Shown: positions 19,128 to 48,205, numbered from the stretch's first letter. The stretch is DNA of 64,000 bases from an uncultured Solirubrobacterales bacterium (GCA_963818675.1 CAWFTE010000002.1:1518361-1582360); one strand, 5' to 3'. Numbers and translations: made by a program. Notes: a model not told the origin generated them from the sequence alone.

Positions 19128-19925
19128 CTATCCGAACACGACGACATGCCGTTCCGGGCGCACCGTCTGATCGCTCCCATCGGCTGACGTTCCAGCGTGC
19201 GCCGCGTCGACCGGACAGTTCTGCTTCGCCTTGGCGAACCAGGCGTCTGATGCACGAGTGCAGCAGAGGACGAGCAGGAACCACGGACCTCGCTGCTCCT
19301 TCCAAGCGGAGCGGTAGCGCTCCGAGCCTCTCGCGCGGCGGCGCATCGGTGCGAGGCGGCAGGGTGTCGCGATCGGCTGCGGGAGCCCATCCGTGTGCTC
19401 CCGCAGGTCGCCTACAAGGCCAGGCCGGCGCTGACGCACTCCGGCGTCAATCGCCGTGCGGTGCAGCTCAAGCCGGGGGGCGCTGGCCGACCATGCATGG
19501 CCGCGAGTGGGTCCGACGATCACGCAGAACAGCGGCCCGACGGGGAGTCTCGCGCGCTCGGTCAGCCAAGCCTGCAGCGCCGACCAACCCCACGGGTCGA
19601 TCCCGACCTCGCGCCGCCGATCGTTCTTTCCGTGCCTGACCAGAATTGACCCGCGGCGCTCGTCGAGGTCGGTTTCGGTCAGCGAAAGCGCCTCGTTGAT
19701 CCGCAGCCCGGCGCGCCAGAGCACGACGATCAGGCCGTTGAGGCGGTGGCCGTAGCGAGCCTGTTGAGCTTGACGCATGACCGCGACGAGCTTCTCGACC
19801 GTCGGAGGGTCAGCGGGGTATCGCTGACCTTTGTTGCGCGGTGCTTTGCCCGTGCGGAACCCCGGCATTGCCGCGGGCGAGCGGCGCCGGCCGGCGGCAT
19901 CGATGAGCGGCTGAACAGAAGACAT
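19128..19925 (-). pseudogene. Tyrosine recombinase/integrase whose 5' two-thirds are conserved and whose C-terminus is degenerate
   Basis: The first ~175 aa match the family (NKGQRYPADPPTVEKLVAVM, LWRAGLRINEALSL, ILVRHGKNDRRREVGID, PVGPLFCVIVGPTRGH). After AGVRQRR the expected FAPHQLRHAHA...LGH...Y region is missing, and only a degenerate GDLREHT remains. Confidence 0.6.
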
Positions 19926-20245: not shown

Positions 20246-20627
20246 TCGCCACCTCACCTGAAGCAAAGGCGCTGGCGTGACCGGCTCGCTTGCTCATTCA
20301 CGGAAAATGGAGGAGCCTTGCTCGACCGGACGGCCTGGCTCGTGCTGCTGCTTCGGACGACCGATGAAGAATGAAGGGGGCGGCGGCCGGCCGCGACGCT
20401 TAGATCGACCCGATTGCGCAAGCTGCGGTGCGAGCTGTTTGGCGTTGCGGCGCCGGCGCTCCCATAGGCATGGTGGCCGGCTCGCCAAAATGCTCGCCCG
20501 GGAGGAACTCCCGGGGGCGAGCCCTGGGCCGCTCGCGTGATGCAGGTTGACCGGGGGGTGGCGGTCGAGTACGGTGGCGACCGGGCATTGCGTCGGCCAG
20601 TTGGCCGGCGCCGGGAAAGGAGTGCGC

Positions 20628-23600
20628 GTGGCTAGATTGCTGCGGTTTGGGGTCGTGTCTGGCGTCGGAGGCTCGGCGCTGCGAGCGCTGGTTCTGGGGA
20701 TCGTTTCAGCGTTGGTCGTGGTGCCGTCGGCGTGGGCGGGGTCGTGGCAGGCGATCGTCACCGATGCTTCTGGTTCGGACAGCTCAGCCACGGCGATCGA
20801 TTTGGGGACGAACATGTCGGGGTCACCGTTCGCGACCGGTGGGTTGGCGGGTTTGGGTGTGGCGATCTCTCCGGATGCGAGCAAGGCGTACGTGGTCAAC
20901 GCAAGTTCGCATTCGGTGACGCCGGTCGACCTCGGCACCTCCCCGGTGGCCGAGGCGCCGATCGACTTGGGTGCTGGCCACAACGGCGTCAATTTCATCG
21001 CTATCTCGCCGAACGGGCTCAAGGCCTACGTCACTGATGCCGCTCACAACCAAGTGCTGCCGCTTGATCTGACCACAAGCCCTGCCACGGTTGGTACGCC
21101 GATCGACGTGGGGGCCAACCCTGAGGGCGTTGCGTTCTCTCCCGACGGTTCAATGGCCTATGTGGCCGACAACGCGAACGGCAGCGGTACGCCCGGCGTG
21201 ACGCCGATCACGGTCGCCACGAACACTGCAGGCACCGAGATCACCACTGGCCTGGGACCGCACCCGTTTTCCATCGCGATCACCCCTGATGGCACCCAGG
21301 CCTATGTCGGAGACGCCGGCTCGGGCAGCAACGGCAAGGTCTACCCGATCGCGCTTCCGTCGGGCTCGGTCGGCCCGCCGATCACGATCGGAGGAAGCGA
21401 CGTTGGGATCGCGATCACGCCCGATGGCAGCAAGGCCTACGTGGCCAACGGGAGTACGGTCACGCCGATCACACTGCAGGGCAACACGCCAGATGCGGCA
21501 ATCCCGGTGACCGGTGGAGCGTTTGGGATCGTGGCTGCCCCGGACTCGAAGACCGTCTACGTGACCGACGACACCGCCGGCAAGGTAACCCCGATCGACG
21601 TCGCCAGCAACACGGCCGGGACGCCGATCATGGTCAGTGGCGTGCCGCGCGGCGTCGCGATCACTCCCGATCAGGCTCCGGTGGCGAACTTCACGGTTAC
21701 GAGCGCACCGGCCGGATCGGCGACTTCGTTTGACGCATCCTCCTCGACGGTGCGCTTCGGGACGATCGCCAGGTACGACTGGAACTTCGGCGATGGGCAG
21801 CTGGCTGCGAACGCCGGTCCCACCCCGTCGCACGTGTACGCGGCCGCGGGAAGCTACACCGCGACGGTGACCGAGACCGACAGCAACGGCACCTCGACGA
21901 CCGGGGAGATCTACACCGGCCAAACCGCTAGCAGCGTCGGCAGCCAGAGCGCGCAGACGAGCCGCTCGGTGATCGTTTCCGCGGGCGGACCCGTGGTCGG
22001 AGTCAGCGCCTCCCATCTAACCTTTGGCCCGACCGCCGTGGGCGTGCCGAGCGCCACGCAGACATTGACGATCACCAACACCGGTAACGCGCCATTGGTG
22101 ATTTCGGGCTCCGCGATTTTCGGTCCCCAGGCCGGCGACTTCAGGCTCACCGCCGACAACTGCAGCGGCCACACCGTCGCGGCGGGCGCCAGCTGCACCA
22201 CGAGTGTCGTGTACACCCCGAGCGCCGGAGGCGCCGGCAACGCCCAGCTCGCGTTTACCGACAACGCTTCCGGCAGCCCGCACACCGTGTTCTTGAGCGG
22301 CAGCGGGACAACAACGGGCACCGTGAGCGGGCGTGTCCTGGATGGCACCCGGACCAGTGCGCCGCCGGTGGACGGCGCCTCTGTACAGATCTGCCCGCAG
22401 GGTCAGCTCGGGGTTGCCGCCTGCCAGTACACGACCACTGGGGCGTCGGGCGCCTATGGCTTCGGCGGGCTGCGGCCGGGCGCATGGGCGATGGAGATCA
22501 CGCCTCCGACGCAGGCTCTGTTCGGAGCCTCTGCGGTGCTGAGCGTCTTGCCGGGCACCCAGACTCAGGACTTCACCCTGAGGGCGCCCGTGCCGCTGCC
22601 GGCGCAGGTCACGGTCAACAGTGCTGCCGGCCTGTTCTCGGGCGGTATACCGATCATTTATTGGAACGGGCCGTTCTCGATCTCCCATCCACTCGACGTG
22701 CCCTCCTCCGGGACTCCTGGCAGCGCGCTGACGATGGTGGTGGAGGACGGGATCTACCTCGCCGGGGGCGGGCTTGGCGCCCAGACTGGCCTGACAGCCA
22801 CTTTTCGCTACGACGCCAGCGGACACCCCTCGTTGACCTCAGTAGCGCCGGTGACGACACCGCTCGGATCGAACCCAGCCCTGAGTCCTCCGGCGGCGGC
22901 GAGCGCGGCCGACTCGCCGCAGAGCCATGGCCATGGCGGTCCCCTGGCCAGGCCCGCAGGGTCAGGTCTGAACCAATTCAACGTCGCTGATGTTCTCAGC
23001 CAAGTGGCAGGGGGTTCGAGCTCCCCTACGGTCATCACCACCGGGAACATCAATCAGGCGGCGCACGGCGATGTCACGCTTTCCCACCTCCAATACGCCC
23101 AGCCGACTGGGTACATGAAAGATCCCAACAACACATCGCTTCTGATCCCGATTTGCCCGAAGGGCTTTCACGTCGCTGTGGTCGACATCACTCTCGTTCC
23201 CAACGGTCGTCCGATCCCGCAACGCGAGTGCGTGCCCGACCCCGACCCCAACCAACCCCAGAACAGCAACGCCAAGATCGATCCCAGCGGCCTCGTCACC
23301 ACGAGCCGCGGAGTGCCGCTGGCCGGCGTCCGGGTGACCCTGCAGCGATCGTTGGTCCGGCCCGGTCCATTCACCGCTCCGCCGCGGGGTAGCACGGTAA
23401 TGGCGCCCTCTGTCAACCGGGAGCTGACCAACGCCGAAGGCCACTACGGCTGGGATGTGATTCCCGGCTACTACCGCGTGATCGCTGCTCGCCCAGGATG
23501 CACGGCGAGCTCCAGACACGGGAAGCGTGCGAAGCAGCTGATCAGCCGCATCGTGACGATTCCACCCGCGGTGACCAACCTCAATCTCGTGCTTTCATGC

Positions 23601-23879
23601 CCGCACCTACGGCGCTCGGCGTCCCGGACCATCCTGCGCGCTCACGCGCTGAGAGGGGTGGCTGGCCATCTTTTCACCGTGACAGTGACGGTCCGGGCAC
23701 GGTACGGTCGCGCCCGCCGCGGCACAATCGTCGGTGTCGTGACACTACGGGCAGCCGGGCGTACCGTGGCGACGCTGCCACTCGATCCGCGTAGCGGCAG
23801 CGTCACGACTACGCTGAGAAACATCAGTCCCGGACGCCTGCGAGCTGCATATTCGGGTGACGCCTTCTACACCAGCTAG
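20628..23879 (+). CDS. Giant secreted multidomain protein: YVTN-type beta-propeller repeats, PKD domain, choice-of-anchor-D-like, CarboxypepD_reg-like, and a C-terminal ~650 aa paralogous to 10028-13981
   Basis: GTG 20628 with an AAGGAG RBS gives the signal peptide VARLLRFGVV...VVVPSAWA. Repeats KAYV(T/A)(D/N)...VTPIDL. PKD motif YDWNFGDG. The tail ...DPSGLVTTSRGVPLAGVRVTLQRS...GWDVIPGYYRVIAARPGC matches that of the first giant protein. Confidence 0.85.
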   Translation: MARLLRFGVVSGVGGSALRALVLGIVSALVVVPSAWAGSWQAIVTDASGSDSSATAIDLGTNMSGSPFATGGLAGLGVAISPDASKAYVVNASSHSVTPVDLGTSPVAEAPIDLGAGHNGVNFIAISPNGLKAYVTDAAHNQVLPLDLTTSPATVGTPIDVGANPEGVAFSPDGSMAYVADNANGSGTPGVTPITVATNTAGTEITTGLGPHPFSIAITPDGTQAYVGDAGSGSNGKVYPIALPSGSVGPPITIGGSDVGIAITPDGSKAYVANGSTVTPITLQGNTPDAAIPVTGGAFGIVAAPDSKTVYVTDDTAGKVTPIDVASNTAGTPIMVSGVPRGVAITPDQAPVANFTVTSAPAGSATSFDASSSTVRFGTIARYDWNFGDGQLAANAGPTPSHVYAAAGSYTATVTETDSNGTSTTGEIYTGQTASSVGSQSAQTSRSVIVSAGGPVVGVSASHLTFGPTAVGVPSATQTLTITNTGNAPLVISGSAIFGPQAGDFRLTADNCSGHTVAAGASCTTSVVYTPSAGGAGNAQLAFTDNASGSPHTVFLSGSGTTTGTVSGRVLDGTRTSAPPVDGASVQICPQGQLGVAACQYTTTGASGAYGFGGLRPGAWAMEITPPTQALFGASAVLSVLPGTQTQDFTLRAPVPLPAQVTVNSAAGLFSGGIPIIYWNGPFSISHPLDVPSSGTPGSALTMVVEDGIYLAGGGLGAQTGLTATFRYDASGHPSLTSVAPVTTPLGSNPALSPPAAASAADSPQSHGHGGPLARPAGSGLNQFNVADVLSQVAGGSSSPTVITTGNINQAAHGDVTLSHLQYAQPTGYMKDPNNTSLLIPICPKGFHVAVVDITLVPNGRPIPQRECVPDPDPNQPQNSNAKIDPSGLVTTSRGVPLAGVRVTLQRSLVRPGPFTAPPRGSTVMAPSVNRELTNAEGHYGWDVIPGYYRVIAARPGCTASSRHGKRAKQLISRIVTIPPAVTNLNLVLSCPHLRRSASRTILRAHALRGVAGHLFTVTVTVRARYGRARRGTIVGVVTLRAAGRTVATLPLDPRSGSVTTTLRNISPGRLRAAYSGDAFYTS

Positions 23880-24171: not shown

Positions 24172-25956
24172 TCAACCGCTCACGCTTGCGCAGCGAGCTG
24201 GCGGAAGCTTCGGACGGCGCCTGAACATCGAAGTGGTGAACAGCGGTATCCCCACGAGCTTTCCTCCGACGCGCCACTCTGCGCCGTAGTCGCCCGGGCC
24301 GGCGTTGAGGCGGCATTCGGCCGTTCCCAGCTCCACCCCGTTGCCGGCTCGCGCGAACGGCCCGCTGGCGCACCCCGCGAGCTTGTAGACGAAGCACAAC
24401 GAATACCGCCTCGCCGACCCGTGGCGCGCGATCGCGTAGACGAAGACGCCGACCCGCGGGTCCCCGTATACGGCGAGGCAGTAGCGTGCCGCGGCCAGCG
24501 ACGGCTGACAGTAGCTGCGCTCGTTATTTCCAGCCGAGAGAGGGGCTCGAAAGAAGTTCGTGCTGGCGACCGCATGGCCAGAGAAGACCTGGGTGACGCT
24601 TCCGCCGCACGTATCGGAGATCGACACTTGGCCGGATCCGAGAACGGAAGCTCTGGTGTTCAGGGATACCGACTGGAATAACGAGCTATTGGTGAATAGG
24701 TCAAGCTGGCGCACGAACGACGGTGGCTGACTGGACTGACAGGCGGAGAAGTCACCGCCCAGGAGCTCGAGCGAAACCGCTCCGGGAGATCGCGAGCTTT
24801 GCACGACGCGAAACTCGCCGAAGCTGACGGCGGCGATCTGGCCAATGTTCGTGCCGTTGGTCGCGCCGATCTCAGCCGAGCCATCTGTGGCGTCGATGAT
24901 CGAGCCGACCGGCACTTCCTCCATGTCCGTGATCCGCTGCGGGGGGCTTCCGCTCACGTTCAGGTAGACCGAGCCGCTGAGCGGCGAGACGCCGACCTCC
25001 TTGCCCGCCACACCGAACGGGAGCGCGTGGCACACGCCCGCGCTCGCGGGTCGAGCGACCGTGGCGGTGAAGGTGAGAGGAGCGAGGAATTCGCGTCCTG
25101 CGACAAACCAGCGCGCGACGTAGGTACCCGGACCCTCATCCTGGAAGCAGTCAACGATGCTGACCGGTATCGGCTGCGGAACCGTTTGAAAGGTGCGGCA
25201 CCGGTTGGTCCCACTCGGGGCTTTGATGCACAACTGGTAGGTCGCGGTGCTCGATCGTTCGAAGATGCCGAACGCGAACTTGCCAATCGACGGTGAGCTC
25301 AGGATGGTCACGCATTGCCGTTTCTCCGCTCCTGCTGCCGCGAGACAACTTCCCGCAAACTCCGTACCAGACGTGAGCGGAGTCGGCTGTGGCCCCGCGT
25401 TCGTGGCCACGGACAGGCGGCCCTGGTGGTCCGATACCTGGGTTTGCTCGCAGTAGTCTGTCGTCGTCCAGTCGGCCCGACCGGCAGTGGTCGCACTCGC
25501 AAATCGTCCGGCGGTGGCGAAGTAACCATCGAAGGCGGCACGTATCCGGAACCTTCGCGACCGCCTGATCCTTGCCGTCACCGCCCGGCCGCAGCCGGGT
25601 AATGGCGCGAGCCGGAGCTGCGTCAGCCCGCCGTTCGCGCGGTTCTGCATGATCCGCACCGGCCCCCCGGTGAATTCGGCGCTGTGCGTCGAGCGGCCTG
25701 TGCCGGCGGCGGTCAGCGCCACCTGTCCCTTCGTCGCGTCGACAACGGTCCCAACCGGAACCTGGGCGGGGCCGCTCAACGCGGTCACGCCGCGCCCAGG
25801 CTCCCGGACGGACACGTGACCGGCGACTGGCTGCAGGTCGACCGTCCTTCCGAGCACGGGTGCCGGAGGCGTTGCCGCCTGCACGGCCGCTGGCGCCGCC
25901 AGCCATGCGCCCAGGACAAGGCAAGCCAGGCGCCAGCAGCGGGCTCGCGTCAGCAC
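24172..25956 (-). CDS. Secreted 594-aa protein with an internally duplicated architecture (FecR-like beta module plus Cys-containing ...GPG.Y...W.V.G... module, twice); last gene of the TIR-SIR2/STAND operon
   Basis: GTG 25956 overlaps the upstream stop (GTGCTGA) and gives the signal peptide VLTRARCWRLACLVLGAWLAAPAAVQA. It is a paralog of 32772-34562 (shared PPAPVLGR.VDL...QVPVGT..D...G). The listed longer ORF to 26355 is an artefact. Confidence 0.75.
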   Translation of the reverse strand: MLTRARCWRLACLVLGAWLAAPAAVQAATPPAPVLGRTVDLQPVAGHVSVREPGRGVTALSGPAQVPVGTVVDATKGQVALTAAGTGRSTHSAEFTGGPVRIMQNRANGGLTQLRLAPLPGCGRAVTARIRRSRRFRIRAAFDGYFATAGRFASATTAGRADWTTTDYCEQTQVSDHQGRLSVATNAGPQPTPLTSGTEFAGSCLAAAGAEKRQCVTILSSPSIGKFAFGIFERSSTATYQLCIKAPSGTNRCRTFQTVPQPIPVSIVDCFQDEGPGTYVARWFVAGREFLAPLTFTATVARPASAGVCHALPFGVAGKEVGVSPLSGSVYLNVSGSPPQRITDMEEVPVGSIIDATDGSAEIGATNGTNIGQIAAVSFGEFRVVQSSRSPGAVSLELLGGDFSACQSSQPPSFVRQLDLFTNSSLFQSVSLNTRASVLGSGQVSISDTCGGSVTQVFSGHAVASTNFFRAPLSAGNNERSYCQPSLAAARYCLAVYGDPRVGVFVYAIARHGSARRYSLCFVYKLAGCASGPFARAGNGVELGTAECRLNAGPGDYGAEWRVGGKLVGIPLFTTSMFRRRPKLPPARCASVSG

Positions 25957-26435
25957 CTGCGTCCGCGATGCTTCTTGCAGAACTTGTACCGGTAGCGCCC
26001 TTGCCGTGCTACTAGGGCGAAGTGTTGCGGAGCGCTCGATGTTGTGACATTTCCCGCGCCTTGCACGTGGGCGCGCATGATTACGCCGGTGGACCGAGGT
26101 GACAGCTCGTACCCGATCACCGCGCGGCCGTGCTTGGGAGCGCCCTTGCCGACATCGAGCCAGCGGTGAATGCCGGTGCGAATCTGAAGCTGGACTGCAA
26201 GCCTGGGATCGGTGACCGGATCGCCCGCAAAGTCCTTTACCGAAACCGCGATCCAACCGGAAAGCTGGATCGTGCCCACGTTCGGCAGGCGCAGGCGAAC
26301 CACACGCGGCCGGGAGGTGGCGCCCGCGATTGGGCCGGTGAGACTCAGCGAGCACAGGCCAACGAGGACGGCGGCAGCGATCCAGGTGGGTGCGCGAGGT
26401 GCGGGTGGGATCTTCACGAGCCCCACCCCGGGCAT
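25950..26435 (-). CDS. Small secreted Ig-like protein, copy 1 (161 aa), with a C-terminal CKKHRGRRC tail
   Basis: MPGVGLVKI... with an N-terminal signal/anchor helix. Paralog of 26515-27000. Its start overlaps the upstream relay ORF stop by 22 nt. Confidence 0.65.
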   Translation of the reverse strand: MPGVGLVKIPPAPRAPTWIAAAVLVGLCSLSLTGPIAGATSRPRVVRLRLPNVGTIQLSGWIAVSVKDFAGDPVTDPRLAVQLQIRTGIHRWLDVGKGAPKHGRAVIGYELSPRSTGVIMRAHVQGAGNVTTSSAPQHFALVARQGRYRYKFCKKHRGRRC

Positions 26436-26521
26436 GCCTCCTGGTAGGGCTGGCCGGCGAGGAACTGCCTCCAGGCCGCTCTGGAAAGCCTCGTGCGTAC
26501 GATCCAGGCCACGGTCAGCAC
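26414..26521 (-). other. 35-codon relay ORF at the tandem-duplication junction (start of the 594-aa gene fused to a copy of the WD40 gene's last ~30 codons)
   Basis: It reads VLTVAWIVRTRLSRAAWRQFLAGQPYQEACPGWGS*, compared with the WD40 tail IVRTNLSRATWRQFLAGQAYHETCPGWGS*. Its GTG overlaps the stop of copy 2 (GTGCTGA), and its stop lies 22 nt inside copy 1. Confidence 0.4.
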
Positions 26522-27000
26522 CGGCGTCCGCGATGCCTCAAGCATCCACGGCCACGGCCTTTGGGTTGATGCCGTGACAGGGTGACATCCTCCGGAGTGC
26601 TTGATGTCGTGACATATCCAGCGCTTTGCACACGCGCGCGGATGGTCACATCGCCGGATTGGCGCTTCAGCGCATAAGGGACGAGCGCGTAGCCCTTCTT
26701 TGGACCGGCCTCGCCGATGTTCATCCACCGGCCTCGTCCGGTGCGAACCTGAAGGTCCACGGCGAGCCCGGGGTCGGTCACCGGCTTCCCAGCCGCGTCC
26801 TTCACTGTTACCGCGATCCGTCCACGGGGCAAGATGAAGTCCAACCGCGGCAAGCGCAGGCGCACCACGCGCCGCTGTGGCGCGGCACCCGCGCTTGCGC
26901 CGCTGAGGCCCAGCGCCCACAGGCTGATGAGCGCCGCGGCAACCATCCACGGGAGTGCGCGGCGGGTGCGTGAGAGCTTCACGAGCCCCACCCCGGGCAT
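26515..27000 (-). CDS. Small secreted Ig-like protein, copy 2 (161 aa), with a C-terminal CLRHRGRRC tail
   Basis: The internal ATG 27000 gives MPGVGLVKL... with signal peptide ...LWALGLSGASAGA. Its start overlaps the WD40 gene stop (26979) by 22 nt. Confidence 0.65.
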   Translation of the reverse strand: MPGVGLVKLSRTRRALPWMVAAALISLWALGLSGASAGAAPQRRVVRLRLPRLDFILPRGRIAVTVKDAAGKPVTDPGLAVDLQVRTGRGRWMNIGEAGPKKGYALVPYALKRQSGDVTIRARVQSAGYVTTSSTPEDVTLSRHQPKGRGRGCLRHRGRRC

Positions 27001-30000
27001 GTCTCGTGGTAGGCCTGCCCGGCCAGGAACTGCCTCCACGTCGCTCGTGAGAGGTTTGTGCGCACGATCTGACAAAGCTGACGAGTAACGGCGCCCGGAC
27101 TCTCACTGTCCGGCACCGGCGAGAGTCTAACCGTTCCATCCAGGCTTGCCGACGCGAGCGCCGAGCCCGATGGGCTGAAGGCAACGCTCTGGACGCCCTG
27201 CGTATGGCTGGCCACCGGCTCGCCGATCCCGGAGGTCAGGTCCCAGGTCATAGCGGTTCCGTCACCCTGGGCCGAGGCGATGCCGGTTCCAGTCGGACTG
27301 TACGCGAGGCCGTAGATCGTGCTCTGCGTGCCCACCAGCGACCTGCTCAGCCGCTGACCGCTGCCCACGTCCCACAAGGTGATGCTGCGGTCATCGCCGG
27401 CAGAGGCGATGGTGTCGCCGTTGGGGGAGAAGGCGACGCCCTCGACGGGACTCGGGTCCGCACTCAGCGTGCGGATCCTCCGACCGCTGAACGCGTTCCA
27501 GAGAATCACCGTGCCATCGCTGCTGGCCGAGGCAAGTAACCCGGGCCTCGGAGCGAACGCGACGGCGTTGACTGCGTCGGTGTGCCGGGCCAGCGCCCAC
27601 AGCGGCTTTCCGCTCGGGAGCCGCCATACCCTGACGTAGTGGTCGGAGCCGGCCGTAGCCAAGAGCCTGCCGTCGGGGCTGAAAGCCACTCCGTACACAT
27701 AACCCGATCCAGCGGGAAGCACGTTCAATCGCTGCCCACTCTCGAGGTCGGTCAGCTCTACCGCCGCCCCCGCCGCGACGGCCACGATGCGGCGCGTAGG
27801 GTCGAAGGCGACAGCCTGGCCCGAGGTTGGCAGTGCGATCGGACGCTGCGCGAACGCCCCCGTTCGGGGATCGAGGAGCAGGGCGCGATCGTCGTCGCTC
27901 GCCGCCGCCAGCACATTCCCGGCCGGGTTGAAGGCGACGCCCGCAATTGCCGGGGCCTGCGCGAGCAGGGGGCGCCTGACGTTCCACAGGATCACCGAGC
28001 CGTCGTCGATGCCGGAGGCGAGCGCCGTTCCCGACCGGTTGAAGCCGACGCTCAGAATGGCGCCATTCGGATCTCGGAACACGCTCTCCTGCCGGAGCGT
28101 CTTCAGTCCCCACACGATCACGTCGTGGTCATCGCTCCCCGACGCGAGGCTCTGGCCATCCGGGCTGAACGCCACGCTCTCGACGACATCGCTGTGTCCG
28201 CTCAGCGTCGCGAGCAGCTGGCCGGTCGCGACGCTCCACAGCTTCACCTTGTGATCGGCCCCCGCTGAAGCAAGCATTGCCCCGTCCCGTGAGAACGCGA
28301 CGCCATTCACCGTGGCGCTGTGGCCGCGCAGGACATGCAGCCTGCGGCCGTCGGCGGCGTCCCAGAGGCTCACGGTGTGATCGTCGCTTCCTCCCGCCAC
28401 GATCCGAGAATCACGGCCGAAGGCGACGCTGTACACCGGTCCGCTGGGCCCCCGCAGCGTCCGGAGGTGAGCTCCGGTGAGTGCATCCCAGATCGCCACC
28501 GTGCCATCGTCGGCGGCCGATGCAAGGAGCTTCGAGTTCGGGCTGAACGCGACGTTCTCCACCGTCGCCGGCCACGGGATCGTGCGGATGGCGCGGCCAG
28601 TCCGTGCGTTCCAGATCGTCACGGCCCCGCCGGTTGCGCGCTGGCTAGCGGCCGCGAGCATGGACCCGTCCTGAGAGAAGGCAACCCCGGATACCTGGTC
28701 GCCGGCGGGAAGGCGATGAACGATACGGCTGGTCGCGACGCTCGAGACGATGACCGTCCCGTCGCCGCTGCCCGAGGCGACCACGGTTCCAGCCGGATTG
28801 AAAGCCACTCCGGTTACAGGCGCCGTGTGACCGCGGATGTACGCGCCCATGCCGCGCGTGGCCAGCAACGCCGCCGTAATGCTGCCTCTAGTGTCGGCGT
28901 TCTGCGCCAGCCGAAGCGCCTCGATGCTCAGGAGCACACCTCTCGAGAGTGAGCCCACCTGTAGGTCGGTCGCGGCTTGGCGCGTCAGCTCTTCCGCGAG
29001 CGCCGTCCGCTGGGCGCGGCGCGCATCATTGAGCGAGGTGATTACCAGCCACACGATCACCACCGCGAGCAGAACACTCAAGAGCGCCGCCAAGCCCCTG
29101 AAGGTTCGCGCGCGCCGCCGCTCGCGCCGTGCTGTCTCGACCGCCTCCCGCTTCTCTGTCTCGAGGCGCTCGCGTTCGCGGATCGACTGCGCTTGCTCGC
29201 GCAGCGCCTGAGTCCGCCGGCGCCAGTCGAGGATGGAGGGCGCGAGCACGTCGTGGAAGATCTCGTAACGGTCGTCGGGCTGAGTCCTCCCGGCAGGGGG
29301 CGGAACGTGACGTAGGATCCTGGTATCGCTTCCCGCCAGTCTCGCCAGCACAGTCGCCACCTCGTCTGCCGGCCGTTCGGTGAGCTGGGCGAGATCGGAA
29401 GCCGCATGCACGATCTTGGTCCCCGACGGCGTAACCAGATAGCGAAACACGTCGAGCGCTACTCCCTGCTGCTCGTCGGGCAGGCTGGCCAGTGCGCCAT
29501 CGAGGTGGGTGCGGACGATCTCGTCCGCACCACCCAGCTCCTGGAGGCTCGTTAGGCGCAGGGTGCTCGAGCTGTTCGCGCGCTCGTGAGCCCACAGGGT
29601 CGACATCACGAGCTGCAGGTACGGCGTTTCGATCTCCTCGCGCTGCGGCGACGCTCCGTTCCCGCTCTCGACCGCGCCGCGCCCTGCGCTTGCGAGGACC
29701 ACCTCGCCGGTCCTTACCTGGTCCAGTACCGCCTCGACGAGCTGAGGTTCGATGCCGACGGGAGGATTGGGCGCGTACCTGTCGTTGAAGTGCTCGATTG
29801 GCTTGACAATGGTCTCCCGGGCCGCGCTCCGGTCGAGGTACTGGAGCTCGATGTAGTTCCCGTAGACGTTCGGCAGCCGTCCGGCGAACAGGTCGCCCAG
29901 TCCGGCGTACGCATCCTCACGGATCGCGATCAGGAAGTTGGCCCGGATATCGGGCCGGTTGATGCATTCGGCAAGCTCGTCCGCGAAACGCCCCTCCACC

Positions 30001-30500
30001 GATTCGCTGGTTCGGTACAGGAAGTACTCCTCGAACTGGTCCAAGACGACCAGAAGCCTCGCGCCAGACGCCGCCGTGGCTGACTCAATCGCGTCCGTGA
30101 GGCTCTGCCGGGGGAGCTCCGTGTCGGACGCAGTAGGAGCCAGCCGCTGCAGTGACTGCTCGATCGCGGCGATCAGGTCCGCCACCGGATCATCCTTCCA
30201 CGCGCTCATCACCACGGGCAGGTAGCCCGGCGTGCCTCGGCGCGCGAGCCGGTGCGCTGCCAGCTCACGTAGCTGCCGACTCACGCCCGCGCGCAGCAGC
30301 GAGCTCTTGCCGACGCCGCTCTCGGCGTACAGGATGGTCAGCCGGGACGCGCGCAGGTTGGCGATGATCGTGTGCGTCTCGCTATCGCGGCCGAAGAACC
30401 ACTCGGCGTCAGCCTCGGTGAAGAAGCTCAGGCCGACGTAGGGGCTCGCCTCGGCGGCCGTGGGCGCGGCCGCCCCGTCGGGTGGCGGGCTAGGCGCCAC
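26979..30500 (-). CDS. STAND-class P-loop NTPase (nSTAND1-like) - Arg-rich coiled coil - single predicted TM helix - 14 WD40 repeats (1173 aa)
   Basis: N-terminal PYVGLSFFTEADAEWFFGRD, Walker A AESGVGKSS, Walker B LLVVLDQFEEYF, hydrophobic helix GLAALLSVLLAVVIVWLVITSL, and 14 repeats of the type GH...V..VAFSPDG..LAS.S.D.TV.LW. GTG start overlaps the upstream stop. Confidence 0.9.
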   Translation of the reverse strand: MAPSPPPDGAAAPTAAEASPYVGLSFFTEADAEWFFGRDSETHTIIANLRASRLTILYAESGVGKSSLLRAGVSRQLRELAAHRLARRGTPGYLPVVMSAWKDDPVADLIAAIEQSLQRLAPTASDTELPRQSLTDAIESATAASGARLLVVLDQFEEYFLYRTSESVEGRFADELAECINRPDIRANFLIAIREDAYAGLGDLFAGRLPNVYGNYIELQYLDRSAARETIVKPIEHFNDRYAPNPPVGIEPQLVEAVLDQVRTGEVVLASAGRGAVESGNGASPQREEIETPYLQLVMSTLWAHERANSSSTLRLTSLQELGGADEIVRTHLDGALASLPDEQQGVALDVFRYLVTPSGTKIVHAASDLAQLTERPADEVATVLARLAGSDTRILRHVPPPAGRTQPDDRYEIFHDVLAPSILDWRRRTQALREQAQSIRERERLETEKREAVETARRERRRARTFRGLAALLSVLLAVVIVWLVITSLNDARRAQRTALAEELTRQAATDLQVGSLSRGVLLSIEALRLAQNADTRGSITAALLATRGMGAYIRGHTAPVTGVAFNPAGTVVASGSGDGTVIVSSVATSRIVHRLPAGDQVSGVAFSQDGSMLAAASQRATGGAVTIWNARTGRAIRTIPWPATVENVAFSPNSKLLASAADDGTVAIWDALTGAHLRTLRGPSGPVYSVAFGRDSRIVAGGSDDHTVSLWDAADGRRLHVLRGHSATVNGVAFSRDGAMLASAGADHKVKLWSVATGQLLATLSGHSDVVESVAFSPDGQSLASGSDDHDVIVWGLKTLRQESVFRDPNGAILSVGFNRSGTALASGIDDGSVILWNVRRPLLAQAPAIAGVAFNPAGNVLAAASDDDRALLLDPRTGAFAQRPIALPTSGQAVAFDPTRRIVAVAAGAAVELTDLESGQRLNVLPAGSGYVYGVAFSPDGRLLATAGSDHYVRVWRLPSGKPLWALARHTDAVNAVAFAPRPGLLASASSDGTVILWNAFSGRRIRTLSADPSPVEGVAFSPNGDTIASAGDDRSITLWDVGSGQRLSRSLVGTQSTIYGLAYSPTGTGIASAQGDGTAMTWDLTSGIGEPVASHTQGVQSVAFSPSGSALASASLDGTVRLSPVPDSESPGAVTRQLCQIVRTNLSRATWRQFLAGQAYHETCPGWGS

Positions 30501-32115
30501 GCGCGCGCCACCGGGTCAGCCGCCCCTCGAGTTCACCCACGTAGTCGTCGAGTGGAGCGGCGAGCAGATCGACATGTAGCGCGCTCCAAAAGTCCTTCTC
30601 CAGAGGATCCGGTGAGCGCTCGATCGCCCACGACTTGTCCTCCAGCGGCCCGCCCTGCCAGATCCTCTTCAAGAACACCCGGAGGCTCCAGTCGCGCATG
30701 GCATACCCGAGGAACAGGCAGTGGCTGCTGGTGAGCTTGTTCAGGATCTGCAGGGGCACGACGCTGCTGATCTGGTCGGTGACCAGATAGTCGATGTACT
30801 GGTCCTCGGTCAGCACATAGCTTCGGTCCCAGCGGAACGTGCCCTCGGCGCCGACCGCCGCGCCCAGCGTCTTGACGATGACGGTCCGCTCCAGCTCATC
30901 CCACGGATCGATCGGGAAGTCTCGATACTTGCTCGGCTCCCTGATCAGCCGCGGCTCCTCGCGCCAGGGGACGTGGACGAAGTGGCCCTTGTCGCGGCCG
31001 GTGCCGAGGAAGACGGCCAGGTCGTACTCCTCACCCGCGTCGTCGAACGCGCGCTCGAGCGCCGTGTCGTAATTGGTGGTCACGATCATCTGGTATCGCG
31101 GGGGCTCGCCGAGCTCTGCGAGCTGCTTCGGGAAGTGGGCCAGGAACCTGTGAACGGGACGGGGCTCCTGCCGAAGCCGCAGGGCCTCGTTCATCGCCCG
31201 GTAAAGGAACGAAGGTCCCTTCGCGACGGCCACATGCTGAGCGACCTCGGCCAGGTCGAGGGACTGGAGCTCGAGCTTGAACTCGCTCGCGAGATGCTCG
31301 GCCAGCCGCTCGGCGTCGGGCAGCGTTCCGCAAACCTGAGATCCGAGCACCGGGACGACGGTGCCCTCGTCGACCATCGCTTCCAGCACGGTGTCGTAAT
31401 GGGCATCGTCCGGTCCCCCCGCCGTGGGGACGCGAACGCTCCGGCCGGTGGACGTGCGAGCGGGTTCGGACGGCTCGGCGGATGAGCTCTCCGCGTCGCT
31501 CGCCCCCGCGGCGCTCGGCTTCGCCTCCAGCTCCTCGAGCTGAGCGATCAGCCCCGCGACGTCCTGATCGAATGAGCCATGCCGCAGCTCGACGGCTTCC
31601 CAGCGGGTGAGGGCGCGGATCGGCTTAGGCAGGCTGGTCTCGCTCGGCATCTCGGCGCCCTCGACGAGAACCGGGATGACGGTGCCCGACCAACGGCGAA
31701 GCGCCAGCTCGAGCTCCACCATCACGACGTCCTCCGGTTCGCCCGCGGGTCGATGCTGTCTCGCCTTGAGGCTGTCCAACCAGTGACGGCCGATCACCGC
31801 AAGAACGACCAAGCCACCTGCGCCGTGTCGCTTGATCTCCTCGAACCACTGCGTCCCCGCCTTGAGCGTCTTGACGTCGAGGAACACGTTGTCGGTCCCG
31901 AACCTCCGCTCGAGCCTGTCGTATAGGAGCAGCGCCGACGAGCTGCTGTCCTCATGCCTGTAGCTGATGAATATCTTCAAGGCGCCGTCGACCGAACCTC
32001 GATGGCCGGTCCTCTCCGCTGAAGTCCCCGCATCTGCCCAGAGCCCCCGCGCAATGTTAGCCCGGCTGCGTCCAGCTCTCAAGGTGCGATCACGGATCCG
32101 CGCCTCCTCACCCAT
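30490..32115 (-). CDS. TIR domain - SIR2-like (SIR2_2-type) domain fusion protein
   Basis: TIR features: KIFISYRHEDS, ...DVVMVELELAL...VIPVLVEGAEMP. SIR2-like features: GTVVPVLGSQV, QMIVTTNYDTALERAF, YVLTEDQYIDYL, CLFLGYAMRDWSLRVF. The start is uncertain (ATG 32115, ATG 32163, or closer to 31990). Confidence 0.8.
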   Translation of the reverse strand: MGEEARIRDRTLRAGRSRANIARGLWADAGTSAERTGHRGSVDGALKIFISYRHEDSSSSALLLYDRLERRFGTDNVFLDVKTLKAGTQWFEEIKRHGAGGLVVLAVIGRHWLDSLKARQHRPAGEPEDVVMVELELALRRWSGTVIPVLVEGAEMPSETSLPKPIRALTRWEAVELRHGSFDQDVAGLIAQLEELEAKPSAAGASDAESSSAEPSEPARTSTGRSVRVPTAGGPDDAHYDTVLEAMVDEGTVVPVLGSQVCGTLPDAERLAEHLASEFKLELQSLDLAEVAQHVAVAKGPSFLYRAMNEALRLRQEPRPVHRFLAHFPKQLAELGEPPRYQMIVTTNYDTALERAFDDAGEEYDLAVFLGTGRDKGHFVHVPWREEPRLIREPSKYRDFPIDPWDELERTVIVKTLGAAVGAEGTFRWDRSYVLTEDQYIDYLVTDQISSVVPLQILNKLTSSHCLFLGYAMRDWSLRVFLKRIWQGGPLEDKSWAIERSPDPLEKDFWSALHVDLLAAPLDDYVGELEGRLTRWRARGA

Positions 32116-32161
32116 CCCTGGGCTGTGAGTCCGCGACGGTCGCAGGGGGTAGGCTATTCGC

Positions 32162-32452
32162 ATGGGCCTGATCCTCTACTTGATCATTCTCTTCTTCGTC
32201 GGTCTATTCGTCGGTGCGCTGGCCCGGCTGTTGCTACCTGGCCCAGATCCGATGAGTATCGGCATGACCGCGCTGGTCGGGATCTGCGGGACTTTCAGCG
32301 CCGGCCTGTTCTCCTGGTATGTGTTGCATCGCCACGGCGCGGGGCTCGTCCTGTCTGTCGTGTTCTCGATGCTGGTGGTGTGGATCTACCGGCATTCGCG
32401 CGGTGGGACCTACGGACGCCAGGGCTTCGCGGGACGCCGCCGGGGGTTCTGA
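32162..32452 (+). CDS. GlsB/YeaQ/YmgE-family small membrane stress protein
   Basis: 96 aa with three hydrophobic helices: MGLILYLIILFFVGLFVGALARLLLPG...GMTALVGICGTFSAG. Confidence 0.8.
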   Translation: MGLILYLIILFFVGLFVGALARLLLPGPDPMSIGMTALVGICGTFSAGLFSWYVLHRHGAGLVLSVVFSMLVVWIYRHSRGGTYGRQGFAGRRRGF

Positions 32453-32771: not shown

Positions 32772-34562
32772 TCACCTGATTGCGCATTTGAACTGCGGCA
32801 GCGCCGACTCCCGTGGCAGCGTCACGTCGAAGCGCACAAATCCCGCAATGCGCCCGTTGACGTCCCACACCCCGTCGTAGGTGCCCTTTCCCGCGTTGAC
32901 GACACAGTTGAGATCGGAGATCTGCTGGCCCGCCGACGGCGCGGGCAGGACAGGCGTCACGCACCGCAACCGGCCGGTCGGCGTCCCGACACAGAAGGTG
33001 TAGTGGGTTGCTGGGGTGTGCAGGCCCAGATGAAACACGAAGAAAAACGGATTCCGCTGAGTCACCACCGCGACGCAGGTGGACGGTCGCGATGAAGTGT
33101 CCGAGCACTGGTAAGTGGCGCTGGTATCCGGGACGAGGCCGAATTCCTCGAACGCGTCCGCCACGACGACTCTGCCGGACGTGTCCTGGGTGAAAGTGCC
33201 GTCGCAGCGGTCGAACATGACCGCGCTCGACGACGCTGAGACGCCTTTTTCCACCGCGAATCGGCCCGCCACGACAAAGGCATTGCTCGCCTGCTTGGCA
33301 CTGAGACCCCGGACGATGCGGAACTGCCCCGCTTTACACGTCCGGAAGTCTCCGCCGGTCATCCGCAGGTACGTGGTGCCGTTCTGGCCTGTGGGTTGTG
33401 TGACGGCGACCTCGGAGCCGAAGAACGACCCGATCTGCACGAGGTCGGCGCGGCTCATGCTGTTGACTTCCGCCGCGCCTTGGCGCAGATCGAGGAGCGT
33501 ATCCAGCGGCACGCGCAGCGATCCACGTACGCGATGGCGAAGTTGCCCGGGGGGCGCCACAAACACCTTGCCCGACCCGACCTCGAGCCCCACCTCCTTG
33601 CCGAAGTTGCCGGTTGGGAAGTCGTGGCATTGCCACGGCACAGCACGCCGGGCGGCCGCGATCGAGAGGGGTATGCCGACAGGTCGCCCGTCGATCGTCC
33701 AGCGCGCCACGTATGCGCCGGCGCCCTGATCGGCAGGACATAGGGCCACGGATACCTGTGCGTTGAGGAAGTCGTCGTGCCGCAGGGGGAGCGAGTGGCA
33801 GCCGTCGGCGCCCTTGGGACCGGACAGGCAGAGGCGATACCGGCTGGCCGGCTCGCGCACCACGAGGCCGAAGCCGAAGCCGGACCGCCGGAATGAGAGG
33901 GCGTTGATGCAGCGCTTGAAGTGCGTTCTGTCGGGGGCGAGCCCGGTGCAGTAACCAACGCCGGTGACGCCAGGCGCCAAGCCCGAGCTCCGACCGCCGA
34001 GGTCCGTCTCGACGGCTCCGGATAGATCGGCTATGTGCGTGCCGCCGCAATCATCTGTGGTCGTCCAATCGGCACGGTTGGCCGCGGTCGCGGTGCCGAA
34101 CCGTCCCGAGGTTTCGAAGTCTCCATCAGCCGCGGCATAGATACGGTGCTTGCGGGACCTTCTGATCTTGGCTATCGACGCCTGGCCACAGGCCAGGGGC
34201 TGCGCAAACTGGAACTTCGTCAGTCCGCCTTCGGAGGAGCTTTGAAGGACACGGACCTGGTCGCCGCTGAACTGCCCAGAATGCGTCCTCCCGGCTGAGC
34301 TGCCGGCTGCGATGAGGGCGAACTGTCCGTTCGAGGAATCAATGAGCGTGCCCACCGGTACCTGCCGTGCGCCTCGGAGCGCGGTCGCGCGCTGGCCCGG
34401 CTCCTGGATTAGCACCCGTCCGTGGACGAGCCGCAGGTCGACGTTGCGGCCGAGCACCGGCGCTGGTGGACCGGTGGCGGCCGACGCCACCGCGACGGCG
34501 CTCAGGCCGAGCACGCTGGTCAGGGCAGCGATCCACCGCAGGACAAATCGAGGCCGCTTCAT
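32772..34562 (-). CDS. Secreted 596-aa paralog of 24172-25956
   Basis: Signal peptide MKRPRFVLRWIAALTSVLGLSAVAVASA. Colinear similarity to the 594-aa protein, including both ...G.G.Y...W.(V/I).G... modules. Confidence 0.8.
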   Translation of the reverse strand: MKRPRFVLRWIAALTSVLGLSAVAVASAATGPPAPVLGRNVDLRLVHGRVLIQEPGQRATALRGARQVPVGTLIDSSNGQFALIAAGSSAGRTHSGQFSGDQVRVLQSSSEGGLTKFQFAQPLACGQASIAKIRRSRKHRIYAAADGDFETSGRFGTATAANRADWTTTDDCGGTHIADLSGAVETDLGGRSSGLAPGVTGVGYCTGLAPDRTHFKRCINALSFRRSGFGFGLVVREPASRYRLCLSGPKGADGCHSLPLRHDDFLNAQVSVALCPADQGAGAYVARWTIDGRPVGIPLSIAAARRAVPWQCHDFPTGNFGKEVGLEVGSGKVFVAPPGQLRHRVRGSLRVPLDTLLDLRQGAAEVNSMSRADLVQIGSFFGSEVAVTQPTGQNGTTYLRMTGGDFRTCKAGQFRIVRGLSAKQASNAFVVAGRFAVEKGVSASSSAVMFDRCDGTFTQDTSGRVVVADAFEEFGLVPDTSATYQCSDTSSRPSTCVAVVTQRNPFFFVFHLGLHTPATHYTFCVGTPTGRLRCVTPVLPAPSAGQQISDLNCVVNAGKGTYDGVWDVNGRIAGFVRFDVTLPRESALPQFKCAIR

Positions 34563-37995: not shown

Positions 37996-38082
37996 ACTCG
38001 GGCCGGACGTTACCAAGGACCCATGGCCACGCGCGACGGGCCCTCGCCCCGCGCCGGCGGGCCCAGTGCGGAAGGTGCTGCG

Positions 38083-42843: not shown

Positions 42844-43018
42844 TGTGCGCCGCAGCGTACCCGCCGACGCGAGATTGCATGCGTCCTTTTTCCGGCGCGC
42901 TGAGCTGGCGGACTGACCTGCCGTGGACCCCGCGAGAAAGCGCCCGACCGCCCGGTCCGGGTTGACCGCATCGTGGACCGACACGATCTTTAAGCGGACA
43001 GCCGGCGCCTGTCGGCGC

Positions 43019-43255
43019 CTACGTGCCGGCGATCGCGGCGAGGACGCAGAATGCGCCCATCCCGAGCAAGGCGGCCCCGGCGACCGGCTCCGAGGAGCGC
43101 CACGCACTCGGGAAGAGGTCGTCGAGCTTGCGCCAGGCAACGGCCGCGAGCGTTCGCTCGCCGAGGAGGAGGTGTCCCCAGGCGGCCACGGCAAGCCCGC
43201 AGAGAATCAGAACTTCACGAAGGCCCATATCCCCGTTAACGGCCGGCGCGGCCAC
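43019..43255 (-). CDS. Small two-TM membrane protein (69-78 aa)
   Basis: High GC3, hydrophobic segments VLILCGLAVAAWGHLLL and AGAALLGMGAFCVLAAIAG. Alternative start ATG 43228. Confidence 0.45.
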   Translation of the reverse strand: MAAPAVNGDMGLREVLILCGLAVAAWGHLLLGERTLAAVAWRKLDDLFPSAWRSSEPVAGAALLGMGAFCVLAAIAGT

Positions 43256-48140: not shown

Positions 48141-48205
48141 GCGAAGCTGTTCCCGCACCGGCCCGAAGATACCCAGCCCGATGGTCGCGCCGGCCGATTG
48201 GGTGG

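Follow-up and report, generated by a model that had tools for sequence, protein, structure and literature searches.

A stretch of 64,000 nucleotides from an uncultured Solirubrobacterales bacterium (GCA_963818675.1 CAWFTE010000002.1:1518361-1582360), referred to here as the window, carries on its minus strand a chain of six open reading frames (ORFs) at 30490-32163, 26979-30500, 26515-27000, 26414-26521, 25950-26435 and 24172-25956. The first two encode a TIR-SIR2 fusion protein (g1) and an nSTAND1 nucleoside triphosphatase (NTPase) with a transmembrane (TM) helix and WD40 repeats (g2). The fourth ORF is a relic, and the remaining three (g3, g5 and g6) encode predicted secreted proteins. The conserved unit at this locus is the two-gene pair g1-g2, and its main interest lies in the outside-in STAND signaling that is predicted for g2 and in the apparent transition of the SIR2 module of g1 from enzyme to adaptor. 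The window has a GC content of ~68%, and its closest protein relatives are found in metagenome-assembled genomes (MAGs) of Solirubrobacterales. Given that yidC, gidB, parA and parB are located at its start, ~25 kb from the locus, the window is chromosomal DNA near the replication origin and neither plasmid nor phage.

The six ORFs are linked by overlapping stops and starts. The g1 stop overlaps the g2 start within the junction GTGGCGCCTAG (30490-30500), and the ATG of g3, at 27000, is placed 22 nt ahead of the g2 TGA. GTGCTGA overlaps occur at 26515-26521 and 25950-25956, and the ATG of g5, at 26435, precedes the TGA of the relic ORF, at 26414, by 22 nt. These junctions match exactly those from which the initial annotation had chained the ORFs, and the overlapping stops and starts support the translational coupling that it had deduced from them. 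Upstream, the chain is bordered by a divergent gene for a small GlsB/YeaQ-like membrane protein (32162-32452, plus strand), and downstream by a convergent PKD-domain gene (20547-23879, plus strand).

The g1 gene (30490-32115, minus strand) encodes 541 amino acids when read from the ATG at 32115, the length also given by an independent gene call. Its longest ORF begins at 32163, and an in-frame TTG at 31980 would give a protein starting with MKIFISYR, which is the type of start found in several homologues. Homologues do not share the first ~47 residues of the 541-residue call (~63 of the longest ORF), and the annotated N terminus contains a sigma-70-like promoter match (32082-32054). The start codon is therefore uncertain within the region 31978-32163. 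A Pfam profile search bears out the earlier description of g1 as a fusion of a TIR and a SIR2_2-like domain, with matches to TIR_2 (E value of 9e-12) and to SIR2_2 (PF13289; E value of 7e-16, 59 bits against a cut-off of 24.5). At least 791 homologues were found, mostly in Solirubrobacterales MAGs.

The TIR domain (31558-31974, minus strand) has its best match among solved structures in the TIR domain of SARM1 (E value of 2e-9). The putative catalytic Glu, encoded by the GAG codon at 31714-31716, aligns with SARM1 E642 and is present in 170 of the 175 TIR-bearing relatives. Both features by which a TIR NADase is recognized, the TIR fold and the catalytic Glu, are found in g1, and cleavage of NAD+ by this domain is predicted.

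The SIR2 module (30493-31425, minus strand) differs in this respect. Its TTNYD motif is intact (Asn codon at 31072-31074), and the position of the catalytic His is occupied by Leu (CTG codon at 30865-30867, in the context VKTLGA). The His column was placed with a profile of SIR2-only proteins aligned to the KomC and DSR2 entries. The TTNYD and KIHG motifs of the family align with the catalytic pocket of both proteins, and the Protein Data Bank (PDB) entries KomC(H146N) and DSR2(H171A) vary at exactly the His of the family's KIHG motif. Residues N133, Y134, D135 and H171 of DSR2 correspond to N112, Y113, D114 and H152 of ThsA, and the H171A variant of DSR2 is catalytically inactive (PMC11263360). 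Of the N-Y-D and His set expected in a competent SIR2 NADase, the window protein has the first part and lacks the His.

The state of these columns was tabulated over 201 aligned sequences, made up of 81 proteins from related loci and 120 database matches, which partly overlap. All 23 full-length SIR2-only proteins, which have no TIR domain, keep both the His and the Asn; three further TIR-less sequences without the His (L063, L069 and P0077) are apparently fragments or frameshifted TIR-bearing genes. Among the 175 TIR-bearing proteins, the His is retained in 104 and replaced by N, L, Q, S, Y or C in 71, the window protein included. As far as the alignment goes, six different replacements at one column imply several separate losses. 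SIR2 modules that lack the His are nonetheless better conserved than the TIR domains, as illustrated by L002 (74% versus 56%).

The initial annotation had proposed a cytoplasmic effector of dual NADase type. With Leu in place of the catalytic His and the TIR Glu kept, the effector is probably not a dual NADase, and the TIR domain would be the only part of the window protein to keep its catalytic residue. Because the His has been lost, we infer that the SIR2 module of the window serves as an adaptor or scaffold and not as an enzyme. The architectures of the g1 relatives give this a possible history. SIR2 alone (~320 residues) is found mostly outside Solirubrobacterales, and it is accompanied in the family by TIR-SIR2 proteins of ~520-560 residues and kinase-TIR-SIR2 proteins of ~865-940 residues. 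On the simplest view, the NTPase has the SIR2 fold as its constant partner; after the gain of a TIR domain, catalysis could move to the new domain, and the SIR2 module could be kept for structural reasons. The additional N-terminal Ser/Thr kinase is carried by L022-L025, L028-L033, L036, L040, L045, L053, P0010 and P0019, and an nSTAND1-TM-WD40 gene still follows.

The g2 gene (26979-30500, minus strand) encodes 1173 amino acids, arranged as an nSTAND1 NTPase, an Arg-rich helix, a single TM helix, a helical linker, ~14 WD40 blades and a Cys-x24-Cys tail. The NTPase module (29133-30443, minus strand) contains a Walker A motif, AESGVGKSS (30300-30326), and a Walker B motif, LLVVLDQFEE (30027-30056). 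Its match to nSTAND1 (PF20703; E value of 8.8e-51, 174.1 bits against a cut-off of 27.1) extends over residues 20-456 of g2 and positions 1-374 of the 379 in the profile. The nucleotide-binding motifs are well kept among the homologues, with SGxGKSS in 64 of 67 and DQFEE in 60 of 67.

The TM helix GLAALLSVLLAVVIVWLVI (29040-29096, minus strand) covers residues 469-487 and has a mean Kyte-Doolittle hydropathy of 2.95 over its 19 residues. Exactly one strongly hydrophobic 19-mer follows the NTPase in 65 of 73 ORFs homologous to g2, the other eight being truncated or misassigned sequences of at most 549 residues. In the window protein the N-terminal flank of the helix is basic and Arg-rich (net charge of +5), compared with +2 on the C-terminal side, and all 20 homologues checked for flank charge fall within +1 to +9 on the N side and −3 to +3 on the C side. 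The helix, like the signal peptides described below, was called from hydropathy, the positive-inside rule and reading of the sequence. These heuristics predict an N-in/C-out topology in which the helix is a signal anchor and the sensor is exported. This would be the only sensible orientation, since the N-terminal part, which lacks a signal peptide, depends on nucleoside triphosphate (NTP), and its partner on NAD+.

The WD40 region (27126-28841, minus strand), predicted to be extracytoplasmic, corresponds to about two seven-bladed propellers. The WD40 family (PF00400) is matched with an E value of 6e-102, with 10 stretches passing on their own, and WD40 and other beta-propeller families together span residues 554-1125 (572 residues, ~14 blades). 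Pfam and the sequence thus agree with the original description of g2 as a STAND NTPase with Walker A and B motifs, one hydrophobic helix and 14 WD40 repeats, and the proposal that it spans the membrane with its propellers facing the envelope is supported, as a prediction, by hydropathy and positive-inside charge. The two conserved Cys residues of the tail were considered as a sign of an extracellular disulfide and set aside, given that the motif varies between clades and is also present in cytosolic WD40 proteins.

The C-terminal part of g2 is variable. In the homologues it is usually built of WD40 repeats, forming from one to at least three propellers, and in some lineages it is short and unrecognized by Pfam. 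Several homologues have domains of 170-270 residues after the TM helix for which Pfam gives no match. In a Pyrinomonadaceae member (L070:12494-13429), a LytR_C cell-envelope domain stands after the helix instead of WD40, above the Pfam cut-off. Compared with the NTPase, the sensor region shows much more rapid divergence, and it has been shuffled among lineages; identities to the window for NTPase and WD40 region are 69% and 32% in L002, and 57% and 44% in L013.

To place the two genes in context, we searched one genome per GTDB species with a profile built from relatives of g1, which gave at least 237 loci, and the best 80 of these were taken with 10-kb flanks. A SIR2-family gene is followed directly by a g2-like nSTAND1 gene on the same strand, 40-69% identical to that of the window, in all 80. 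Relative to where the SIR2 match ends, the projected NTPase start falls between −37 and +69 nt; in most loci, the genes overlap at stop and start or are at most 30 nt apart. Moreover, the identities of the SIR2 and NTPase parts to the window covary (r = 0.88, 72 loci). The hosts belong to Solirubrobacterales, Acidimicrobiia, Gaiellales, other Actinomycetota, Chloroflexota (Anaerolineae) and Acidobacteriota, with further examples in a Verrucomicrobiota MAG, a Gemmatimonadota (Longimicrobiales) MAG and a “Deltaproteobacteria” MAG. At least one MAG has the pair in duplicate (L019 and L029). The arrangement is real and well beyond chance, given the adjacency of g1 and g2 throughout the 80 loci.

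Clustering of the three neighbors on each side across all loci revealed no third conserved gene. The gene after g2 is convergent or unrelated in most loci, and the recurrences are sporadic: TrkA_N-RyR proteins in 7 loci, large amine-oxidase-like flavoproteins and SARP regulators. Co-conservation of the whole gene set, which the initial annotation had made a check on its proposal, therefore holds for g1-g2 (80 of 80 loci) and not for the rest, with the g6 module in 8 of 80 and g3 and g5 in none. The TrkA_N proteins combine a Rossmann domain with a C-terminal RyR domain and stand beside the pair in varying position and orientation in L003, L007 (15670-17574), L008, L011 (6818-9721), L034 and others. 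Proteins with NAD_binding_8 or amine-oxidase-like domains, also large, recur near the pair.

The genes that follow g2 in the window have a history of their own. A tandem duplication of 565 bp accounts for the region 25949-27078 (copies at 25949-26513 and 26514-27078), and the repeat families D1 and D6 are likewise spaced by 565. Each unit comprises the last ~100 nt of g2 and a gene for a small secreted protein. The two products, g3 (26515-27000, minus strand) and g5 (25950-26435, minus strand), are paralogues of 161 residues each, 53% identical (dN/dS of ~0.57), and both have a C-terminal CxxHRGRRC motif; g3 is predicted to be a small, secreted all-beta protein. ORF 4 (26414-26521, minus strand) reproduces the final 35 codons of g2; its GTG overlaps the g3 stop, and its own stop falls 22 nt past the g5 ATG. 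Its DNA shares 72% identity with 26982-27086, and its dN/dS of ~0.33 derives from very few sites. With ORF 4 a duplication relic, the operon of six genes that had been proposed does not stand as such. Since the start and stop overlaps are kept in both copies, the relic may persist as a ribosome bridge that couples translation of g3 to that of g5.

As read from the sequence, the N termini of g3, g5 and g6 combine a run of basic residues, a hydrophobic segment and an AxA-type site, and are predicted signal peptides. This agrees with the earlier view of these genes as coding for signal-peptide proteins that include two small paralogues. None of the three gave a significant family in Pfam, NCBIfam, PHROGs or PADLOC; in Pfam, Invasin_D3 appeared weakly on g3, below the cut-off. 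Homologues of g3 and g5 were found neither among 5.8 billion proteins nor in the 80 loci. An AlphaFold2 model of g3, built on a two-sequence alignment, is all beta, with a predicted local distance difference test (pLDDT) score of 57, too poor for a fold search.

The last gene, g6 (24172-25956, minus strand), starts with a GTG that overlaps the g5 stop and encodes a predicted secreted protein of 594 residues, made of two Cys-containing all-beta modules of ~280 residues (internal repeat, E value of 1e-17). A full-length paralogue (32772-34562, minus strand; 596 residues) lies upstream of g1, beyond the divergent small membrane-protein gene; it has a signal-peptide-like N terminus and no Pfam family, and is 36% identical to g6 over 572 residues (blastp, E value of 4e-97). 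A full HMMER search gave 1756 representatives of the g6 module at an E value of at most 1e-3, and a word-indexed search found almost none. The module has eight invariant columns, of which six are Cys. Its AlphaFold2 model is all beta (pLDDT of 90.5), and a fold search with this model against the PDB and BFVD returned only generic beta-sandwiches with TM-scores of at most 0.35. A FecR-like resemblance was dropped for want of statistical support. The N-terminal half of the module is also found at the C terminus of large surface proteins with PKD, Calx-beta, Big_1 and DUF11 domains. Single-module relatives (P0126 and P0127) are on short, uninformative contigs, where one adjoins a DedA/VTT gene and not a STAND gene.

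A hidden Markov model of the g6 module matches 8 of the 80 loci, and in L011, L013, L014, L034, L041, L049 and L052 the match is directly downstream of g2 on the same strand. L012 has three g6-like copies nearby, which flank the pair on both sides. In L084, the same locus as L013, an independent gene call has the start of the g6 homologue overlapping the g2 stop. Immediately after this homologue lies a convergent SLATT-domain gene (L084 15997-16500, minus strand; SLATT_1/DUF4231/SLATT_3), from a family tied to nucleotide-signaling conflict systems. The g2 linker and WD40 regions of the g6-bearing loci are the most similar to those of the window (38-44%), and L002 and L003, whose NTPases are 68-69% identical to that of the window and whose WD40 regions are 28-32% identical, have no g6. 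The g6-bearing loci are thus those with the most similar sensors and not those with the closest NTPases, and sensor and g6 therefore move as a set from one NTPase lineage to another. This argues, on circumstantial grounds, for a functional link between the two, which would operate outside the cell. The description of the secreted proteins as dedicated partners has nevertheless to be given up, given that g3 and g5 are without homologues and that the g6 module occurs in 8 of 80 loci and in unrelated contexts; g3, g5 and g6 are best treated as lineage-specific accessories outside the conserved core.

The wider neighborhood is rich in other features. A SARP/AfsR-type regulator (35155-38016, minus strand), with Trans_reg_C, BTAD, AAA_16/NB-ARC-like and TPR domains, lies 3 kb upstream of g1 and is itself a STAND-class ATPase. 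Similar regulators are found within 10 kb of the pair in L019, L022, L023, L029, L031, L033, L053 and L062. Very large predicted surface or secreted proteins are abundant nearby (10028-13981 and 20547-23879, plus strand; 39520-43194 and 45151-47148, minus strand), with Vgb_lyase-type propellers accompanied by HYDIN/ASH Ig-like domains, and with PKD, FG-GAP and esterase plus NHL domains. Between surface-protein genes there is a tyrosine-recombinase or integrase-like ORF of 265 residues (19128-19925, minus strand; Phage_integrase, E value of 2e-7; phrog_216). The origin of the locus as a mobile island, an idea that this ORF raised, was rejected, as no tRNA or repeat boundary was found. An ORF of 664 residues (7870-9864, plus strand) has a lantibiotic dehydratase N-terminal domain (E value of 6e-22), which hints at a gene for biosynthesis of the type of ribosomally synthesized and posttranslationally modified peptides. 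ARAGORN reports a tRNA-Ala(CGC) at 47868-47960 (minus strand), within a long ORF with high GC at third codon positions (47178-48665); its unusual length of 93 nt may reflect a false positive or an insertion.

Taken together, we lean toward the view, held with moderate confidence, that the core of the locus is a two-gene conflict module resembling the nucleotide-binding leucine-rich-repeat receptors (NLRs), in which g2 is a membrane STAND receptor and g1 its cytoplasmic NADase partner, and whose role is most plausibly defensive or abortive. In such a module, g2 would present its nSTAND1 NTPase to the cytoplasm and, through one signal-anchor helix, a double WD40 propeller to the outer face of the membrane. 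The constant cytoplasmic partner would be g1, always translationally coupled to g2, with a SIR2-fold module that appears to coevolve with the NTPase and, in actinobacterial lineages, a SARM1-like TIR domain added at its N terminus. An envelope cue would bind or perturb the propellers, and the signal, passed on through the TM helix and the Arg-rich stalk, would license NTP-dependent oligomerization of the NTPase. Molecules of g1 held through their SIR2 modules would then cluster, and the clustered TIR domains would build active NADase sites at which NAD+ is destroyed or turned into ADP-ribose-type products, so that growth stops or the cell dies. In the SIR2-only relatives, SIR2 itself would act as the NADase. 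The exported accessories g6, g3 and g5, cotranslated with the sensor, could assist the propellers as co-receptors or by presenting ligands to them. The types of effector, the shuffled and fast-diverging sensor, and the occurrence of the pair in duplicate within a single MAG (L019 and L029) favor a role in conflict or abortive infection.

Several points weigh against this interpretation. The defence-island signal is weak, with few of 115 neighbors in 17 loci matching PADLOC (mad3, mad6, MkoA, a phospholipase effector and generic kinases), and the window locus itself is in ordinary chromosome, in the vicinity of yidC, gidB, parA and parB. All relatives are known from MAGs only. The topology derives from hydropathy and the positive-inside rule, and the complex of g1 with g2 is putative. 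In actinobacteria, cytoplasmic proteins often contain propellers with this tail motif at the C terminus, and for this reason the type of propeller gives no argument for export. Finally, the counts of His loss include events that are phylogenetically nonindependent.

The alternative that fares best against these observations keeps the same hardware and gives it a nonimmune purpose, namely outside-in signaling or regulated cell death in response to envelope stress, in development, or in kin and non-kin recognition among soil actinobacteria. An extracytoplasmic sensor would be unlike the characterized Avs and bNACHT proteins, which sense cytosolic phage proteins, and this, together with the weak enrichment of defence genes among the neighbors and the chromosomal context near the origin, speaks in its favor. 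Furthermore, Kaur et al. tie such systems to multicellular or social habits (PMC7159879, PMC8195603). We nevertheless regard this alternative as unlikely, given that a shuffled and rapidly diverging sensor, variable accessory genes and at least one MAG with two copies (L019, L029) are typical of conflict systems, and that TIR and SIR2 NADases are known mainly as immune or toxin effectors. It departs from the conflict-module reading in trigger and role only and not in mechanism.

An obligate system of five or six genes, in which TIR and SIR2 are both active NADases and g3, g5 and g6 are required partners of the WD40 propellers, would account for the chaining of all ORFs by stop/start overlaps. 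It would also agree with the g6 module being kept directly after g2 in 7 loci despite ~50% identity of g1 and g2, and with the presence in L026 and L027 of unrelated proteins of 879 and 911 residues, with hydrophobic N termini, that overlap the g2 stop. We consider it quite improbable, since the catalytic His of SIR2 is Leu in the window, no homologue of g3 or g5 was found, the g6 module is missing from 72 of the 80 loci and found elsewhere without the pair, the gene after g2 is mostly convergent or unrelated, and ORF 4 is a duplication relic. Very improbable, finally, is a helix that acts as membrane tether only, with membrane or cytoplasmic events (damage, depolarization) as trigger and exported propellers that are structural or anchoring and not ligand sensors: the TM helix and basic stalk are indeed the most constant part after the NTPase, the C-terminal domain ranges from 54 to more than 1500 residues and sometimes has no recognizable domain, and TM segments were proposed by Kaur et al. 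as membrane-associated sensors in EACC1 systems, but the C-terminal repeat domain is the sensor in characterized STAND proteins (so also PMC7159879), and the fast divergence and swapping of WD40 with a covarying secreted neighbor fits ligand recognition.

The conflict-module reading can be carried further, and at this point only tentatively. The pairs might be widespread, true transmembrane NLR-like receptors whose exported sensor, of WD40 or other C-terminal type, detects phage adsorption or injection machinery, foreign surface molecules or envelope damage, in some lineages with secreted co-receptors such as g6. The signal would pass across the membrane to an NTP-driven oligomeric switch that fires a cytoplasmic NADase, and an ancestral SIR2 enzyme would have become a dead adaptor after the gain of TIR.

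The characterized bacterial STAND or NLR-type immune proteins are cytosolic and recognize phage proteins once infection is under way. If the sensor of g2 does stand outside the membrane, the NLR chassis would also be usable as a surface receptor, a role that animals and plants assign to a separate class of receptors, and the pair would offer a tractable system for asking how a trigger on one side of a membrane reaches a STAND switch on the other. Repeated loss of the SIR2 His after the gain of TIR would be a clean natural case of an enzyme becoming an adaptor. The naming used in PADLOC and NCBIfam misses this family, whose members are currently annotated only as “SIR2 family protein” or “hypothetical.”

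The initial annotation knew of no described system of this composition, and the searches agree with it. PADLOC, NCBIfam and PHROGs gave no system- or family-level match for g1, g2, g3, g5 or g6, and a literature search found no description of a pair formed by SIR2 or TIR-SIR2 and nSTAND1-TM proteins, of its topology or of its SIR2 degeneration. For g1, PADLOC and NCBIfam returned weak partial matches only, to ThsA1 (E value of 8e-7 over 97 residues), ThsB1 (E value of 3e-5 over 48) and ThcB4; for g2, PADLOC returned only HEAT-ARM_XIII, through the WD40 region, and no Avs model at an E value of at most 0.01. The claim of novelty holds in that the pair has no name or model, and does not hold in that the family is widespread (at least 237 hits) and falls within the known class of nSTAND1/STAND conflict systems (PMC8195603).

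The nSTAND1 clade was named by Kaur et al. in 2021, who placed it in systems with bDLD3/EAD10-type adaptor domains and in EACC1 systems, with TIR, SIR2, caspase and other effectors (PMC8195603). The pair shares with those systems the NTPase clade (PF20703), a STAND protein flanked by effectors that target NAD+ or nucleotides, or by peptidases, and by repeats that form superstructures, and a distribution mostly in actinobacteria and other soil or multicellular bacteria. It differs from them, as they are described there, in that there is here no EAD or Death-like adaptor, a separate SIR2-family effector is strictly and directly coupled, and a conserved TM helix is predicted to put the sensor on the outside of the cell. 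Other components make up the membrane-associated EACC1 system that Kaur et al. described in 2020.

The pair is neither a Thoeris system nor an Avs system nor a classical single-chain cytosolic NLR. In g2 only 19 residues precede the nSTAND1 match and the effector domains are on the separate g1, which sets it apart from a single-chain NLR, and the conserved hydrophobic helix that is predicted, on heuristic grounds, between NTPase and repeats does not fit a soluble cytosolic protein. With Avs/AVAST systems, including the SIR2-STAND fusions of Avs5, and with bNACHT, the pair has in common a STAND NTPase, a repeat sensor, an NADase-type effector and an expected activation by oligomerization. An Avs or bNACHT protein is one cytosolic chain and recognizes phage proteins within the cell, whereas the present effector has its own gene, the NTPase is of another clade, the protein is predicted to span the membrane, and no Avs model of PADLOC is matched.

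The TIR and SIR2_2 folds are shared with Thoeris, which consists of ThsA (SIR2-SLOG) and ThsB (TIR). In Thoeris, TIR makes a signal that the SLOG domain reads, and SIR2 is switched on. This is in contrast with g1, where TIR and SIR2 are fused, Pfam finds no SLOG domain, the SIR2 His is absent and a STAND NTPase is an obligate partner. DSR2, KomC and SIR2-HerA have the same SIR2_2 fold with its N-Y-D and His pocket, all of which is kept by the SIR2-only members of the family. They differ in partner and sensor, and the window has Leu at the position where the His of DSR2 is essential (PMC11263360). The likeness to SARM1 concerns the TIR structure, the aligned catalytic Glu and an expected activation by induced proximity; SARM1 is regulated by ARM and SAM domains, whereas the NADase predicted here would be regulated by a membrane STAND NTPase.

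There is precedent for STAND proteins that span the membrane. A 2025 preprint (10.1101/2025.11.14.688446) touches briefly on transmembrane STAND ATPases that serve Pepco-protease modules as sensors, and a periplasmic CLec sensor was predicted on a NACHT protein in 2024 (PMC10907252). In those cases, unlike here, the effectors are proteases with Pepco, or the proteins are targets diversified by diversity-generating retroelements, and no SIR2 or TIR-SIR2 partner is described; the topology is there only mentioned. An analogy of topology alone exists with the single-pass receptor Ser/Thr kinases of actinobacteria (PknB/PknD type), in which an N-terminal signaling domain inside the cell is joined by one TM helix to an extracellular sensor that may be a beta-propeller. 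Their output is phosphorylation and not an NTP-driven oligomeric switch coupled to an NADase, although some g1 relatives do carry an N-terminal kinase.

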